Below, one piece after another: positions 35,234 through 44,495 of a stretch of DNA of 64,000 nt; positions within the stretch are counted from its first letter, which is position 1; every line of letters begins with the position of its first letter. A program made the translations under genes and the position numbers. The notes beneath the pieces were generated by a model that saw nothing but the letters and a program-made list of their open reading frames with translations, made no database searches and had not been told where the DNA came from. Origin of the DNA: Candidatus Omnitrophota bacterium. GTDB lineage: Bacteria > Omnitrophota > Gorgyraeia > Zapsychrales > Fredricksoniimonadaceae. The stretch is from positions 133,428 to 197,427 of the forward strand of contig JBGAJA010000003.1 of NCBI GenBank assembly GCA_044225175.1, in the 5' to 3' direction.

Positions 35234-35914
35234 ATGACGAGTTATTTTTTAAAAATCATTGGTTTTATTCTTGTGGTTTTCTTACTTTTGACCTCGTATC
35301 AAATTGCCAAGATTGTTTACTCTACCAAGAAAGTCAATCTCAATATCCATCCTTTTCAAAAATTTAATGCATCTGCAAAGTATAAAGTTTTATTTGCGGG
35401 AGATAGTACTGCCGTTGGTATTGGGGCTTCCGATAATACTTTAAGTACAGCTGGATGGTTTAGTCGTGAGAATCCTAAAGCTCATATTGAAAATTACAGC
35501 CAAAATGGACTTCGTCTCAAAGGTCTTATTGAGATTTTGTCCCATTTAGAAGATAAGAGATACGATTTAGCCATTCTTCAAATTGGGGCCAATGATATCA
35601 TCAATTTTACTAATTTAAAGAAGGTCGATGAGCAAGAGAGAACTGTCTTGGACATGACCAAGAAGATTGCTAAGAAAGTCATCATCTTGCATTCAGGGGA
35701 TATTGGGAAAGCCCCTTTATTTAATTGGCCATTTACATGGATTTATACTTGGCGATCTTTGAAAGTTAGAGATATTTATAAAAAGAATCAGGATGATCAG
35801 GTTAAGTATGTGGATATCTATGGATTGGAAAAACCAGATCAGGATTTGCGAGATAATTATGCGGCGGATAACCTGGGGGTCGCAGGTTCAAATCCTGCCC
35901 CCGCAACCAATTGA
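35234..35914 (+). CDS. SGNH/GDSL hydrolase-family protein; last ~18 codons are supplied by the tRNA fragment
   Basis: N-terminal TM; FAGDSTAVG GDS block. The C-terminus ...GVAGSNPAPATN reads through tRNA-derived DNA. Confidence 0.6.
   Translation: MTSYFLKIIGFILVVFLLLTSYQIAKIVYSTKKVNLNIHPFQKFNASAKYKVLFAGDSTAVGIGASDNTLSTAGWFSRENPKAHIENYSQNGLRLKGLIEILSHLEDKRYDLAILQIGANDIINFTNLKKVDEQERTVLDMTKKIAKKVIILHSGDIGKAPLFNWPFTWIYTWRSLKVRDIYKKNQDDQVKYVDIYGLEKPDQDLRDNYAADNLGVAGSNPAPATN
35862..35909 (+). pseudogene. 3' fragment (~48 nt) of an initiator-type tRNA-Met gene (T-arm + acceptor 3' strand + CCA), not a complete tRNA
   Basis: GGGGTCGCAGGTTCAAATCCTGCCCCCGCAACCA matches the fMet tRNA 3' end (GGUUCAAAUCC, CCCCCGCAACCA). 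No 5' acceptor strand, D-arm or proper anticodon arm lies upstream. Confidence 0.6.
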
Positions 35915-35960
35915 AAACCCTTAGTTTCCGACGGAGACTAGGGGTTTTCTCTTGCCTTTT
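35913..35960 (+). terminator. hairpin + T-run immediately after tRNA fragment
   Basis: GAAAACCCTTAGTTTCCG a CGGAGACTAGGGGTTTTC then TCTTGCCTTTTTT. Confidence 0.6.
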
Positions 35961-36017
35961 TTCAGACCTTCAATTACTATCAATTTCGATCAATTTAGCC
36001 CAATTTTTACCAATAGT

Positions 36018-36037
36018 TGGCACAAATCTGGCACATA
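36018..36037 (+). repeat. 20-bp direct repeat TGGCACAAATCTGGCACATA (copy A; putative att / also sigma-54-like TGGCAC-N5-TGGCA)
   Basis: Identical 20/20 to 44475..44494; 16/20 to 42433..42452. Confidence 0.7.
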
Positions 36038-36086
36038 GTTCTAAAAAGATAGATTAGATGTGGGAGTTGATAAGCTAAGGAGAAGA

Positions 36087-37040
36087 ATGAAATATTTTAG
36101 TGAAGAAGATAGAAAGAAGATCGAAGAAGAGATTTCTGATTTTAATTTAAGATATTTGGAAGTTACTTATAAAATCCAAATGGTACTAAGTGAATTGAAA
36201 GAAGAAAAATCCAAAGAATATCTACTTCATGGCGCAATGCGTAGAATTAGGCTCTTGCGTCGGTGTGTCGAGAACATCTTTATAATTTATCCTCACGAAA
36301 GAGAAGAGCTTTTATCTGAAAATGAACGTGATGATCTTATGATAAATCTCCATGCATTTCTTATTAACGTTTTTGGAATTTTGGATAACCTAGCTTGGGT
36401 TTGGTTGGTGGAAAAAGGTCTTGCTATAAACATGAATAGTGCAGATGTAGGGTTGTTTAATCGGAAGACTCAAAAGAATTTTATTCAAGATTTTCAAGAT
36501 TACTTAAATTCAGAAACTATGCAAAAATGGCATTTTTCTCATCTTAAAAATTATCGGGATGCTTTATCGCATCGGATAGCTCCTTATATTCCTCCTAGGG
36601 TATTAAGTGCTGAACAAAGAAATGAGATTGCCAGAATAGAAAAAGAGTTAGAAATTGCGAGAGAAAAGAACGATTTTAGGACTATGAATCGTTTAGAAGA
36701 AGAGGAAGAAAAAATTGGTGAAGTTTGCCCGTTTTTTCAACATTCTTTATATGGTCCAGTTTCAAGAAGCCAAGTTAAAAGAGCGAAATTGACTTGGGAA
36801 GATATATCCAAGAAGTTGGTTGATAATGGCTGGGCTAAATTTGAGAGTGTAGATGTGGTCTCTTTGATGGTAAATGTTACCAAAGAAAAAGAGAATATAG
36901 CTAAGGTATTTGGGGATGATTTCTTGAAGATTCTTCCAATTCTCCAAGATGCCTATTGTATGGTATCTTTACATGCTCAAGTTATTGCTGATTTTAAGAC
37001 CATTGAAGAAATAATAGAAAAATATTATGAAATGTTCTGA
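36087..37040 (+). CDS. HEPN-like (Rx4H) Abi_2/AbiD-AbiF-like putative abortive-infection RNase
   Basis: RBS AAGGAG; motif NYRDALSHRIAPY (R-x4-H) in a predicted helical protein of Abi-like size. Confidence 0.45.
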   Translation: MKYFSEEDRKKIEEEISDFNLRYLEVTYKIQMVLSELKEEKSKEYLLHGAMRRIRLLRRCVENIFIIYPHEREELLSENERDDLMINLHAFLINVFGILDNLAWVWLVEKGLAINMNSADVGLFNRKTQKNFIQDFQDYLNSETMQKWHFSHLKNYRDALSHRIAPYIPPRVLSAEQRNEIARIEKELEIAREKNDFRTMNRLEEEEEKIGEVCPFFQHSLYGPVSRSQVKRAKLTWEDISKKLVDNGWAKFESVDVVSLMVNVTKEKENIAKVFGDDFLKILPILQDAYCMVSLHAQVIADFKTIEEIIEKYYEMF

Positions 37041-42508: not shown

Positions 42509-42845
42509 TCAGGTCGCCAGCCTGAGGGTCGATATAAAATGTTAGTAGAAACGACATAAAAGTCATCTAAAAGTAGATTTATTAAGGTAAATTAAATCGT
42601 TTATTCATTTAATTTTCATCTTATTTTTAGTGTTCTTTTGATATAAAAAGTTGACAACTTTTACTTGACAGATTTAACAGCATGATAGAATATAATCGCT
42701 TCCTAAGACATCAATTTAGCTGAATTTACATGTTCATGTCTCTTAAATTCTATCCAATTCGTTTTTTTTATCAAAAAATGTTACTCTTTTTGAGGGGCTA
42801 ATTTAGACTTTTTTGTATTATTTAAAGTATTGAAATCTTAACCAT

Positions 42846-42890
42846 CCCTGTGGTTTCGACCGCAGGGTGCGGGGCTACGAAAGTAGCCCC
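42846..42890 (+). promoter_or_regulatory. two adjacent GC-rich stem-loops (second with GNRA loop) immediately 5' of NYN gene
   Basis: CCCTG tggtttcgaccg CAGGG ; GGGGCTAC gaaa GTAGCCCC; ATG at 42900. Confidence 0.45.
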
Positions 42891-42899
42891 TGCTCATTT

Positions 42900-43856
42900 A
42901 TGCCCCCTGTAAAAACTAGTATTTATATTGATGGATTTAACCTTTACCATAGGAGTTTAAAAGATACTCCCTACAAATGGCTTGATTTTAAGTCATTGTT
43001 CTCTAAAATCCTTCCTCCTCATAGAAATGAAATTAATCATATAAAATATTTTACTTCACCTGTTTCTGCTCTTGAAGATGTACATAGACCTCAAAGACAA
43101 GATGCTTACATTCGTGCACTAAAAGCTTATATACCAGAGATCGAAATTTATTGGGGGAGATTTCAAACTCATCCTAAAAGCATGCCTAAAGCCAATCCTG
43201 ATTATCCTACTACTTCAAGTGATGTTTATTTAAGAGATGCCAAAGGAAACTTGATTTATGACAGAGTAGTGAGAGTAGAAGAAAAAGGATCAGATGTTAA
43301 TATAGCCATGCATCTTTTAAATGATGCATGGCTAAATCAATATGGTTGTGCAGTATTAGTTTCTAATGATAACGATATTGCGGGTGCATTAACTTTATTA
43401 GAGAAATACCATCCTAAAAAGATTCGAGGTCTAATTACACCATTTTGTGCTGCTAGTTTAAGAGCGTCTTTATCATCCAAGCCCTTAAATCCTGATCATT
43501 TGTTAACTCCTGCGAAAGATTTGATTGATAACGTCAATTTTGTCAGACAAATGCGAGAAGGGGTTCTTAGGGATTCCCAACTCCCTGATATTATTCCAGG
43601 AACAACAATTCATAAACCTATAGATTGGTGTTGTGGCAGAGTTTCTAAATATCCATTCCAGAAAGAGGGATTAGATTTTGATCTTATAATACCAAAATGT
43701 ATTCAAAAAGGTTATGTAACGAGCGACTATCAAGTAGATTTAGGATTTCTTACAGTAGATCAGGAATTTAAAGGATGGTTTCCTCAATACAATAAAAGTC
43801 ATTTCAATCAAATACAGTCACTTTTACATTTATTTCGTAGCTATCGTGAGTCTTAA
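42900..43856 (+). CDS. NYN (LabA-like, PIN-fold) nuclease domain protein
   Basis: IYIDGFNLYH...EKGSDVNIAMHLLNDA...VLVSNDNDIAGAL NYN motifs. Confidence 0.7.
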   Translation: MPPVKTSIYIDGFNLYHRSLKDTPYKWLDFKSLFSKILPPHRNEINHIKYFTSPVSALEDVHRPQRQDAYIRALKAYIPEIEIYWGRFQTHPKSMPKANPDYPTTSSDVYLRDAKGNLIYDRVVRVEEKGSDVNIAMHLLNDAWLNQYGCAVLVSNDNDIAGALTLLEKYHPKKIRGLITPFCAASLRASLSSKPLNPDHLLTPAKDLIDNVNFVRQMREGVLRDSQLPDIIPGTTIHKPIDWCCGRVSKYPFQKEGLDFDLIIPKCIQKGYVTSDYQVDLGFLTVDQEFKGWFPQYNKSHFNQIQSLLHLFRSYRES

Positions 43857-44495
43857 ATGAACGTTGACCAAATAACTAATATAGCGATCAAAATTCAACA
43901 ATTAGGTGATAAAGCTGACTTTACTCTATTAGTTGCAATTATAGGTGCTATTGCAGCCATTGCTGCTGCCATTGTAGCAGGTATTTTTGCATACAAGGTG
44001 AATCAGAGTAATACACAGCATCAGAAACAATGGGCTTATATTAATAAGAGAAGTCTTTTAATAGATCATGCAGTCGATACTGTTATAAAGATGATGTATA
44101 CAAAATTATTGATTTGCGATCACAATTCTCAACCTGCAAAGGATAATTTCTTTTCGCTTCAGAAGGATGCACTTTTGATTGAGAGTCATTTAATTGTTTA
44201 TGGTGCACAGAAGATCGCAGAAGCATTAAATGATATAAAGACAGATATAGTCCAATGTCCAGATAAAGAATTTCGTAATCAATGGGCATCAATTTATAGT
44301 AAGGGGACTGGATATTTAGATCAATGTCGTCAATTTCTGGGAAATGATTTAGGGAAAGATTATACGAAATTCTCAAAAGAGCTTACAGCTTCACCGCCGC
44401 CAGCTGTTGAATTTGTACCTAAAACTGTTACTGCAAATACAGCAAGTAGTTTATCTATTCAACAAATAGAAAAATGGCACAAATCTGGCACATAA
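43857..44495 (+). CDS. hypothetical membrane-anchored protein
   Basis: Single N-terminal TM (LLVAIIGAIAAIAAAIVAGIFAY); C-terminus contains direct repeat copy C. Confidence 0.45.
   Translation: MNVDQITNIAIKIQQLGDKADFTLLVAIIGAIAAIAAAIVAGIFAYKVNQSNTQHQKQWAYINKRSLLIDHAVDTVIKMMYTKLLICDHNSQPAKDNFFSLQKDALLIESHLIVYGAQKIAEALNDIKTDIVQCPDKEFRNQWASIYSKGTGYLDQCRQFLGNDLGKDYTKFSKELTASPPPAVEFVPKTVTANTASSLSIQQIEKWHKSGT
44475..44494 (+). repeat. 20-bp direct repeat copy C (putative att)
   Basis: TGGCACAAATCTGGCACATA. Confidence 0.7.

Follow-up and report, generated by a model that had tools for sequence, protein, structure and literature searches.

A small integrative element inserted in a GDSL/SGNH hydrolase gene, with 20-bp repeats that most likely serve as arm-type integrase sites

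What do the three copies of a 20-bp repeat mark around the integrase gene of this locus? In the window, the whole stretch of 64,000 nucleotides analyzed here, a sequence-only reading described an AT-rich, integrase-borne island bounded by these repeats. The reading that we strongly favor is a small integrative element at window positions 35876-44562 (8,687 bp), inserted off-target in a GDSL/SGNH hydrolase gene, with the 20-mers as pairs of arm-type sites for its integrase (Int).

The junctions are formed by an 8-bp repeat, ATAACCTG, at 35868-35875 and 44555-44562, which splits the lipase-like hydrolase gene:
35234..35875, + strand: 5' part of the disrupted GDSL/SGNH hydrolase gene (Pfam PF13472/PF00657; aligns with homologues and the allele P0241)
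35868..35875, + strand: attL copy of the 8-bp junction repeat (crossover region; alignment to the empty-site contig L168 ends at 35872)
44552..44562, + strand: attR core CTCATAACCTG, tRNA-fMet anticodon-loop sequence plus stem, containing the 44555-44562 repeat
44563..44634, + strand: displaced 3' part of the GDSL gene (HLNGQGYHLWYDFIKSELSDDQE, then stop; alignment with homologues, P0241 and the empty site)

Once 35875 is joined to 44563 the GDSL ORF is uninterrupted, and 35234-35875 plus 44563-44634 encode a protein of 237 aa whose full-length alignment with homologues (n = 12) runs straight across the joint. As it now stands, the truncated ORF reads into tRNA-derived DNA and stops at 35914. 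The comparison with an empty site bore out the insertion: a relative (L168/L169) carries the intact 237-aa allele P0241 between the same response-regulator gene and crcB, without the island, and its contig aligns to window 34552-35872 (94.3% identity) and then from 44556 onward. Foreign composition likewise supports an integrase-borne island and its AT-rich appearance. GC content is 33.6% in the island versus 38.5% in the rest of the window, where no 8.7-kb segment falls below 37.1%, and the tetranucleotide distance is 0.216 versus 0.099 ± 0.009 for other segments, so that both profiles set it apart from its flanks. Misassembly, conceivable in a metagenome-type assembly, is disfavored by the duplication of 8 bp and the exact split of the gene. 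The 8,687-bp element contains neither conjugation nor virion genes.

Joining the ends of the element gives an attP in which tRNA-fMet is represented by its 3' half, anticodon loop through CCA. Both the tRNA-fMet fragment and the terminator hairpin behind it, noticed earlier at the left edge, are real, and the stem is strongly terminator-like:
35868..35909, + strand: 3' half of tRNA-fMet carried by the element, forming the P' side of the attP core (aligned to E. coli tRNA-fMet and the tRNA-fMet genes of the related loci L082 and L086)
35913..35949, + strand: terminator-like hairpin 3' of the tRNA half (17-bp stem; MFE -27.1 kcal/mol, z -7.1; conserved in the P' arms of relatives)
35979..36006, + strand: three phased CAATTT repeats between terminator and arm site (repeat family; columns conserved in the P'-arm alignment), candidate accessory-protein sites

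The window shares a homologous P' arm with L082 and L086 (81% column identity), and ARAGORN found no intact tRNA in the window. In L082/L089, the closest canonical relative (Int 76% identical), an intact tRNA-fMet stands at attL, and the int stop codon lies inside CTCATAA at attR, adjoining the tRNA 3' half; L090 has the same arrangement. Since attP carries the tRNA 3' half, integration into tRNA-fMet rebuilds the tRNA in these canonical relatives. With the closest of them in tRNA-fMet and the 3' half carried by attP, it follows that the copy in the GDSL gene is an off-target insertion of an element whose usual target is tRNA-fMet, and that the tRNA fragment belongs to the element. The fragment stands at the left junction because the element inserted into a protein-coding gene; being the P' half of the element's own attP, it is not the sign of another element on the left for which it had been taken.

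The GDSL site (CGGATAACCTGC) matches attP (CTCATAACCTGG) at 12 of 17 anticodon-arm positions, counted from the sequence, with 8 bp identical at the crossover. At the GDSL site the empty-site relative reads GACAACTTG versus GATAACCTG, which counts against the favored reading. Lambda-type integrases insert at secondary attachment sites where core similarity is partial, disrupting the host gene, and the element is like these in both its partial core match (12/17) and its disrupted host gene. Islander-type tRNA/tmRNA islands also have a tyrosine integrase adjoining the target; there the carried tRNA 3' part regenerates the gene and the displaced fragment marks the other end (PMC4383910). This is exactly the arrangement of L082/L089, whereas in the window no tRNA is regenerated and the tRNA half is fused to the truncated hydrolase ORF, because the insertion was off-target.

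The repeats themselves lie within these limits, the junctions being about 150 bp beyond the first copy on the left and about 68 bp beyond the last on the right, and are thus not the island ends for which they had been taken. The sequence TGGCACAAATCTGGCACATA is identical at 36018-36037 and 44475-44494 (22 of 23 positions on extension). Of the three perfect copies reported earlier these two stand, but the copy in the int tail at 42433, TGGCACAAATTTGGCAC, has one mismatch in 17 (16/17) and is followed by unrelated sequence. Three matches to the 20-mer compare with 0.13 expected by chance, and none of 100 shuffles reached three. The sites and the integrase are:
36018..36037, + strand: putative P' arm-type site pair, with TGGCACA twice at 11-bp spacing, +153/+164 from the core-loop start
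41435..42508, + strand: tyrosine integrase, its N-domain predicted to bind arm sites and its C-terminal tail disordered (PF00589, 4.5e-37)
42433..42449, + strand: putative arm-type site pair inside the int tail, coding NGTNLAP
44475..44494, + strand: putative P arm-type site pair, -77/-66 from the core loop, in a relic int tail reading NGTNLAH... in the int-tail frame

Relative to the core, the half-sites of the window (-77/-66 and +153/+164) correspond to -81/-70 and +152/+163 in L082. Those of P22 lie at -81/-70 inside int and at +84/+138/+149 around the annotated attP core, and in HK542 the int tail contains GGCACAA half-sites, with three more past attP. The integrase gene called from the sequence alone was confirmed by its profile match, and the attP/int overlap seen in the repeat at its 3' end holds good. 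In the AF2 model of Int the N-domain folds as beta-beta-beta-helix (pLDDT 84-89) and the tail is disordered, and the best Foldseek matches of the model are full-length lambda Int (334-343 columns aligned), which suggests a lambda-like, arm-binding N-terminal fold. The enzyme is 37% identical to HK542 Int over the catalytic region and tail, including the NGTN tail. The 20-mers are most likely arm-type Int sites, rather than crossover sites or sigma-54 promoters, because the P22 layout is alike, the HK542 half-site is the same and the predicted N-domain is lambda-like.

In a family-wide survey, the int stop codon lay at a tRNA or tmRNA gene in 82 of 138 evaluable loci. Of 155 int tails, 83 had an exact tandem repeat (at least 7 bp, 10-12 bp spacing), the spacing being 11 bp in 64, against 4.9% of 1,403 control windows. 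The same motif as in the int tail is found again, 90-185 bp inside the distal repeat derived from the tRNA, in L003, L005, L024, L053, L062, L112 and L122, a layout shared by L082; at the thresholds used, no distal motif was found in L021 and L047, where both ends are visible. Across about 80 loci, the half-sites vary from one integrase to another.

This variation also bears on whether the 20-mers are bound by another protein of the element, either the HTH_17 excisionase or one of the XRE regulators. Direct repeats in tandem on att arms are targets of excisionases too, but we consider this reading improbable: the motif occurs on each arm and has the geometry seen in the tandem repeats around the annotated attP core of P22, the half-site changes with the integrase, Int has a predicted arm-binding N-domain, and the separate phased CAATTT set is available to an accessory protein. 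Position and analogy with P22 make Int, over Xis or XRE, the most likely ligand.

There is very little to recommend the 20-mers as crossover sites (attL, middle att and attR) marking the island ends, the interpretation first drawn from direct repeats near both ends of an AT-rich segment and a copy in the int 3' end. The host gene is broken at 35875 and 44563, away from the 20-mers; empty-site homology stops at 35872 and restarts at 44556; the 150 bp left of the first 20-mer are element DNA homologous to the L082/L086 P' arms; and in no relative does the motif fall on the tRNA-derived junction repeat. The repeat at the crossover is ATAACCTG, in the split GDSL gene, and the 20-mers are internal, at P22-type arm positions. 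Sigma-54 (-24/-12) promoters of the form TGGCAC-N5-TGGCA, raised earlier as an alternative, are hardly credible: GG and GC are correctly spaced, the pattern is seen three times versus 0.05 expected by chance and the 36018 copy lies 50-70 bp 5' of an ORF, but all three copies are internal to the element at arm-site positions in a layout common to P22 and HK542, two of the three are in coding sequence (int tail and ORF212 end) with only the displaced GDSL remnant after 44475, the homologous L086 column is TGTCACAAATCCGTCACA (GTCAC...GTCAC) without GG or GC, and half-sites elsewhere among relatives are ATGGACAC, CTGCTACA or TTTATCACA.

The element has a backbone of XRE, SpoVG-like, 107-aa, candidate excisionase, second XRE and integrase genes, together with cargo:
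36087..37040, + strand: cargo ORF, 317 aa, function without assignment (no family match, no homologue in related elements)
37062..38051, - strand: cargo TIR-domain protein resembling the CAP12/Pycsar effector TIR (PF10137, 25.8 bits versus cut-off 24.7; weak PADLOC TIR match)
38051..38263, - strand: XRE-family HTH regulator 1, backbone (homologues 70-80% identical in L082, L086, L091)
40181..40477, + strand: SpoVG-like protein, backbone (homologues 56-57% identical in L082, L086)
40490..40813, + strand: 107-aa backbone protein (weak PHROG match to DnaD-like protein)
40979..41158, + strand: HTH_17/AlpA-like protein, candidate excisionase (RDF) (PF12728, 6.2e-14; phrog_66 'excisionase')
41163..41369, - strand: XRE-family regulator 2, divergent from int (profile match and homologues)
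41402..41423, no strand: perfect 22-bp palindrome over the -35 box of a near-consensus promoter 5' of int, a candidate operator

The AlpA-like and two XRE genes are thus as first described, and many related loci have an HTH_17 homologue 5' of int (75 tblastn hits). At 25.1 bits the SpoVG-like gene stays under the Pfam threshold of 29.6, but PF04026 is present in its homologues from related elements; the gene called winged-helix has only the weak PHROG match to a DnaD-like protein.

Unlike in canonical relatives, Int is 2.1 kb from attR, a point against the favored reading, and the intervening DNA contains:
42509..42525, no strand: internal core-like inverted repeat TCAGG-TCGCCAG-CCTGA, its 7-nt spacer starting exactly 81 bp past the int-tail motif (not a stable RNA hairpin)
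42900..43856, + strand: cargo NYN-domain protein, matching PADLOC candidate HEC-09
43857..44495, + strand: cargo ORF212 (212 aa), with a hydrophobic N-terminal stretch in translation and last codons overlapping the P-arm site (no family match)

Lying between two P-arm copies, this 2-kb NYN/ORF212 module has the look of accreted cargo. The two tandem units proposed earlier survive in part: an int-less 2-kb right unit is plausible, L086 being arranged alike with type I R-M cargo, but the 20-mers are not its boundaries. Tentatively, the 42.5-44.56 kb region could be a cassette without int, or what is left of a second related element, that Int joined on at the att core (tandem accretion), leaving a hybrid internal site and a terminal attR. 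The internal site combines the P-arm motif with an anticodon-arm-like inverted repeat whose spacer lies exactly 81 bp downstream as in true cores, a relic int tail stands at the right end in the correct reading frame, and L086 has the same pattern with R-M genes between copies 2 and 3. However, the internal spacer TCGCCAG shares one of seven positions with CTCATAA, neither a tRNA T-arm nor a clear P' arm follows the internal site, and the region 3' of int aligned to attP no better than shuffled sequence. In CIME-type accretion of the ICESt1/ICESt3 family, int-less elements stand beside integrative elements; the module is similar as integrase-free cargo with att-like flanks beside an int-bearing element, but its internal-site spacer is unrelated to the terminal core, and accretion or mobilization is putative here. 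It is rather doubtful that recombination, homologous or illegitimate, instead swapped the cargo in at the 17-20 bp arm motif conserved among related elements, duplicating the motif without a site-specific step. Int-tail homology does start exactly at the left edge of the motif in the window and L086, and the L086 int lacks its own tail from that same point, but the core-like inverted repeat retained at +81 in four different elements is left unexplained.

The favored reading, an integrative element with arm-type Int sites, has close parallels in P22 (thrW) and the SfX/HK542-type enterobacterial phages, which share a heterobivalent tyrosine integrase, an attP abutting the int stop, a tRNA-derived core and an excisionase gene adjoining int. 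Like the element, P22 has two half-sites 11 bp apart in the int 3' end, at about -81/-70, and both have a further tandem pair on the other arm at about +140 to +165; HK542-type phages agree with the element in the GGCACAA half-site and in the tail peptide NGTN(M/L)A. The element differs in its target, tRNA-fMet (anticodon loop) versus tRNA-Thr in P22, in showing no third single P' site, unlike P22, in having no phage genes and 2 kb of cargo between int and the functional P arm, and in the location of this copy in a protein-coding gene. Its arm sites are proposed from position and sequence, whereas those of P22 were reportedly mapped experimentally by Smith-Mungo et al. in 1994.

By this analogy, Int would be a heterobivalent enzyme of the lambda/P22 type. 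The attP core mimics the tRNA-fMet anticodon arm and brings the tRNA 3' half, and recombination with the look-alike GDSL/SGNH site duplicated ATAACCTG and cut off the catalytic D-x-x-H end. Each 20-mer would represent two TGGCACA half-sites one helical turn apart, one pair per attP arm; with its N-terminal domains on the arm pairs and C-terminal domains on the core, Int would bridge the arms into an intasome for integration and excision, the latter requiring the HTH_17 protein as well. The int-tail copy with its own core-like inverted repeat, followed by the 2-kb NYN/ORF212 module and the second P arm, would be accreted cargo. The element belongs to a kind that is already well understood, here in an uncultured bacterium, where its Int would bind the 20-mers and the element may still be able to excise.

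The 8,687-bp island at window positions 35876-44562 is a genuine insertion, an element with a P22-type integrase from a tRNA-fMet-targeting lineage that has integrated off-target in a hydrolase gene. The open reading frame on its left flank encodes a GDSL/SGNH hydrolase, which reads into tRNA-like DNA and lacks the C-terminal D-x-x-H block of the family; the missing block is found immediately to the right of the island. Joining position 35875 to 44563 gives an uninterrupted 237-aa protein with the C-terminal end ...DNYAADNLHLNGQGYHLWYDFIKSELSDDQE, and this joint is spanned directly by full-length GDSL homologues (53-63% identity). 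An intact 237-aa allele, P0241, shares a 90%-identity cluster with the truncated product, and the two contigs that carry it (L168 and L169) show the gene order response regulator, intact GDSL gene, crcB. Both align to window positions 34552-35872 (94.3% identity) and resume at 44556 into crcB with nothing in between, which provides the empty site that the sequence-only reading had proposed to look for. The 8-bp direct repeat ATAACCTG is present at both junctions (35868-35875 and 44555-44562). The hydrolase gene is a disrupted pseudogene, and the insertion is probably recent. The truncated GDSL protein is recorded as a 226-aa product of the source contig in the protein collection, and exact look-ups of this product and of the window integrase returned no contig. 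The locus of a 63%-identical GDSL homologue (L001) was also considered as an empty site and was set aside for its non-syntenic context, the sibling from the 90%-identity cluster being used instead.

The composition of the island bears out its earlier description as AT-rich and marks it as foreign, with a GC content of 33.6% versus 38.5% elsewhere (at least 37.1% in all other 8.7-kb windows) and a tetranucleotide distance of 0.216 versus 0.099 ± 0.009 for other windows. The 20-mer TGGCACAAATCTGGCACATA, which had been thought to delimit the island, is identical at 36018-36037 and 44475-44494 (22 of 23 positions when extended), but the true junctions lie approximately 150 bp and 68 bp outside these copies. 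Three matches to the 20-mer were found in the window against 0.13 expected by chance. The third copy, at 42433 in the 3' end of the integrase gene, is not perfect: it reads TGGCACAAATTTGGCAC, with one mismatch in 17 positions and unrelated sequence beyond. A further stretch in the int 5' region, AATAGTTGGCCCAAATAAGGC (41506-41526), matches 36012-36032 at 18 of 21 positions; it encodes the conserved peptide EIVGPNKAI and is probably a coding coincidence and not a fourth site.

When the right end of the element is joined to its left end, the resulting attP has the form ...TGGCACAAATCTGGCACATA-57 bp-CTCATAACCTGGGGGTCGCAGGTTCAAATCCTGCCCCCGCAACCA-terminator-...TGGCACAAATCTGGCACATA, where the core corresponds to the anticodon loop and the 3' side to the 3' half of tRNA-fMet. 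The tRNA-fMet 3' fragment and terminator hairpin noticed earlier were confirmed: a clear 3' half lies at 35868-35909, followed by a strong hairpin. ARAGORN detected no intact tRNA in the 64 kb, and Rfam gave only a weak tmRNA-like match for the tRNA half and nothing at the 20-mers or at a pair of twin hairpins further right. The closest relatives with genomic context (L082, L083 and L089), whose integrase is 76% identical, are integrated in tRNA-fMet. Their left end has an intact tRNA gene with TGGCACTGATTTGGCAC 108 bp further on, and their right end carries the int tail with TGGCACAAATATGGCAC; int terminates at the TAA of the anticodon loop CTCATAA, and the tRNA 3' half comes next. Locus L090 has the same arrangement. 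Because of the attP reconstruction and this tRNA-fMet layout, the fragment at 35868-35909 is assigned to the element's own P' half, and not to another element to the left, as had been proposed from its polarity.

A regenerated tRNA together with a displaced fragment, the mark of tRNA-integrated islands, was found in L082 and L089; in the window this combination is absent and the junctions lie in the GDSL gene. The element family is thus one of tRNA-integrated islands, and the present insertion, being off-target, falls outside. By manual count, the GDSL site TGCGG-CGGATAA-CCTGC and the anticodon arm TCAGG-CTCATAA-CCTGA are alike at 12 of 17 positions. The 7-nt sequence at the junction is CGGATAA in attL and CTCATAA in attR; should the overlap region be the 7-nt loop, these two junctions would represent one replication product of a heteroduplex overlap. 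In many other relatives (L003, L005, L008 and others) an intact tRNA follows int directly on the same strand, so the 5' part of the tRNA must come from the element side, and in others the tRNA is convergent with int. This integrase family uses both tRNA polarities and many different tRNAs, as well as tmRNA.

The integrase belongs to the PF00589 family (4.5e-37) and contains the catalytic residues of tyrosine recombinases (R..H-x-x-R..H/W..Y), with R195, H280, R283, H306 and Y315 invariant in a 27-sequence alignment. Its profile matches in the PDB include the P2, HP1, XerA and lambda integrases. In the AlphaFold2 model, strands 4-8, 11-18 and 21-28 and helix 31-51 (pLDDT 84-89) precede a flexible linker, after which come the core-binding and catalytic domains. 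The best Foldseek match was full-length lambda Int with its N-domain included, the alignment being approximately 65 columns longer than with the Int(75-356) constructs. The protein is therefore predicted to have a separate N-terminal arm-binding domain composed of a three-stranded sheet and a helix. Pfam also supported the earlier assignment of the integrase gene (41435-42508), the HTH_17/AlpA-like gene and the two XRE genes, while the SpoVG-like assignment stayed below threshold. The HTH_17/AlpA-like gene (40979-41158) is a candidate recombination directionality factor, and throughout the family a homologue precedes int. A perfect 22-bp palindrome, ACACCCAACAATCGTTGGGTGT (41402-41423), is located where XRE2 and int diverge; it is a candidate operator and extends over the -35 box of a sigma-70-like promoter (11/12). 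Its DNA seems conserved in a relative, where an over-long integrase N-terminus (P0149) reads TPNNRWV.

The 20-mers are very probably pairs of putative arm-type integrase sites on the two arms of attP, the P arm to the left of the core on the int side and the P' arm on the side of the tRNA 3' half. This assignment is based on the motif layout in the family, the homology of the P' arms, the integrase fold and the geometry of P22 and HK542. Genome and metagenome collections, together with exact look-ups, yielded 163 related loci, and a tRNA or tmRNA gene was present at the int stop codon in 82 of the 138 that were evaluable. In 83 of 155 loci the 3' end of int (last ~150 bp) contains an exact tandem repeat, 7 bp or longer, with 10-12 bp spacing (11 bp in 64 of them), compared with 4.9% of control windows (n = 1,403). 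The half-sites vary with the integrase and include ATGGACAC, GGTCACAA, CTGCTACA and TTTATCACA, among others. In seven loci (L003, L005, L024, L053, L062, L112 and L122) the int-tail motif recurs on the same strand 90-185 bp inside the distal tRNA-derived repeat, and L082 shows this layout of distal and int-tail motifs too; in L021 and L047, with both ends in view, no distal motif was detected at up to two mismatches. Homology between the window, L082 and L086 extends along the whole P' arm (81% column identity), and the motif occupies the same columns in all three. Phased CAATTT repeats between the terminator and the P' arm site (window 35979-36006) are likewise conserved in this alignment and are possible binding sites for an excisionase or bending protein.

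Relative to the core, the TGGCACA half-site pairs of the window are located at -77/-66 and +153/+164, and the half-sites of L082 at -81/-70 and +152/+163. A motif scan of viral contigs revealed 71 proviruses, nearly all with a 388-aa integrase (ending ...NGTNMAQ...) adjoining tRNA-Thr; this integrase is of the SfX/HK542 type from enterobacterial phages. The attP annotated in HK542 directly adjoins the stop codon of int, and GGCACAA half-sites occupy -50/-39, within the int tail, and +127/+168/+179 on the far side. In P22 the annotated attP core has GTCCCA half-sites on both sides, those at -81/-70 falling within the 3' end of int and the others at +84/+138/+149. The P22 arm-type sites were reportedly mapped experimentally by Smith-Mungo, Chan and Landy in 1994 in a two-plus-three arrangement, to which these P22 half-sites correspond. 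Their study is cited in a bioRxiv preprint (10.1101/2023.11.06.565760). Repeats with the layout of arm-type sites, unlike the core and present on both attP arms, are common to the window, L082, P22 and HK542. A megablast search of the L184 int tail against phages gave no match.

In the model, the motif-encoding tail of the integrase (residues 334-358) is disordered. For each of the tail peptides NGTNLAQ, MDTIWTP and VTNWSQ (loci L002-L167), also disordered in the model, the coding DNA is an 11-bp tandem repeat. Their conservation appears to act on the DNA and not on the protein, and they are most simply explained as imprints of arm-site DNA on the reading frame. A very large integrase family appears to share the P22 attP layout, with arm sites inside the int frame.

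The alternative that the 20-mers are sigma-54 promoters draws on the GG and GC at -24/-12 spacing in TGGCAC-N5-TGGCA of the window copies, but it is rejected, since all copies occupy arm-site positions, two of the three lie within coding sequence and only that at 36018 has an ORF shortly downstream. Moreover, GG-N10-GC is not conserved: the homologous column of L086 reads TGTCACAAATCCGTCACA and other relatives have unrelated half-sites. A secondary promoter role of the 36018 copy is possible beside its putative function as an arm-type site.

Internally, the element departs from its relatives to the right of int. In canonical relatives the int tail leads straight into the core, whereas in the window a perfect inverted repeat resembling the anticodon arm, TCAGG-TCGCCAG-CCTGA, comes after the tail motif at 42433. 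Its 7-nt spacer begins exactly 81 bp downstream of that motif, where L082 has its true core. An NYN gene, ORF212, a second P arm and the functional core then follow, and the second P arm reads NGTNLAH... in the int-tail frame. The unit of P-arm motif and TCAGG-N7-CCTGA at a fixed 81-bp spacing also occurs in L088, L002 and L086, with other spacers (TGTTGAA, TTCAAAT, TTTAGAA).

Occurrences of the TCAGG-N7-CCTGA inverted repeat
42509-42525, window
3432-3448, related locus L088
11117-11133, related locus L002
13248-13264, related locus L086

L086, which is located in tRNA-fMet, has three motif copies (7468, 13173 and 21066), the second and third enclosing a type I R-M system together with a YgjP-like gene; its int has lost the tail motif, and the locus, covered up to position 35805 of contig CAYNSM010000003.1, stops short of the expected terminal core (CTCATAACCTG and the tRNA-fMet 3' half). 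The second P arm and the L086 parallel support the int-less right-hand unit proposed earlier and suggest that cargo is repeatedly lodged between two P-arm copies. The right-hand module may have originated either by site-specific accretion or by recombination at the conserved motif. Apart from the motif and the short core-like repeat, the region after int (42450-42870) has no significant likeness to attP (core and P' arm): local and global alignments were no better than those with shuffled sequence or other island pieces, and for this reason the suggestive TTGACA-N8-TTGACA at 42651/42665 is not claimed as a site. The internal inverted repeat is unique within the window, and as RNA it gives no stable hairpin (z -0.6). 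It seems unlikely that the internal unit is a functional secondary recombination site at which P22-type elements take up int-less defence cassettes and accumulate them between the integrase gene and attR; if it were, the cassettes would be NYN/HEC-09 in the window and the type I R-M system in L086, and the accretion mechanism would be specific to this lineage. Apart from this core-like internal site and the stacked cargo, the element has no unexplained features.

The backbone common to relatives consists of XRE1, the SpoVG-like protein, a 107-aa protein, HTH_17, XRE2 and the integrase, and the cargo unique to the window copy comprises ORF326, a TIR-domain protein, a lipoprotein, ORF60, HTH103, ORF203, NYN and ORF212. 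The NYN protein (42900-43856) matched the PADLOC candidate HEC-09 (8.9e-29) and phrog_7929 (6.2e-41). Just upstream of the NYN gene start, or over it, are two strong neighbouring hairpins (42846-42893; MFE -34.3 kcal/mol, z -5.5), GC-rich and capped by UUCG and GAAA tetraloops, with no Rfam match and no other copy in the window. The TIR-domain protein (37062-38263 region, minus strand), a possible defence cargo, is CAP12/Pycsar effector TIR-like, just over the Pfam cut-off; it is located beside an XRE regulator and absent from related elements. ORF326, ORF203, ORF212 and HTH103 had no match in PADLOC or PHROGs, and the lipoprotein none in PADLOC. Pfam revealed no virion or packaging genes, and PHROG matches were confined to integrase, excisionase/HTH, weak DnaD-like and unknown-function families. 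No Pfam family of relaxases, coupling proteins or type IV secretion was found in the scanned island ORFs (all but the 60-aa ORF at 38886-39068). Since no virion, relaxase or secretion genes were found, this is a small integrative element and not a prophage or ICE.

The element and its arm-type sites belong to a known kind of system and involve no new mechanism. The annotation of the locus is corrected to a hydrolase pseudogene and an 8,687-bp island of which the tRNA fragment is part. A clean attP can also be reconstructed from the locus, representing a family of small integrative elements that carry defence-like cargo and are widespread in Omnitrophota-type and other uncultured lineages. P22-like arm sites embedded in the int reading frame apparently account for integrase C-terminal peptides that are conserved yet disordered, and they help to predict att sites and island ends in metagenomes.
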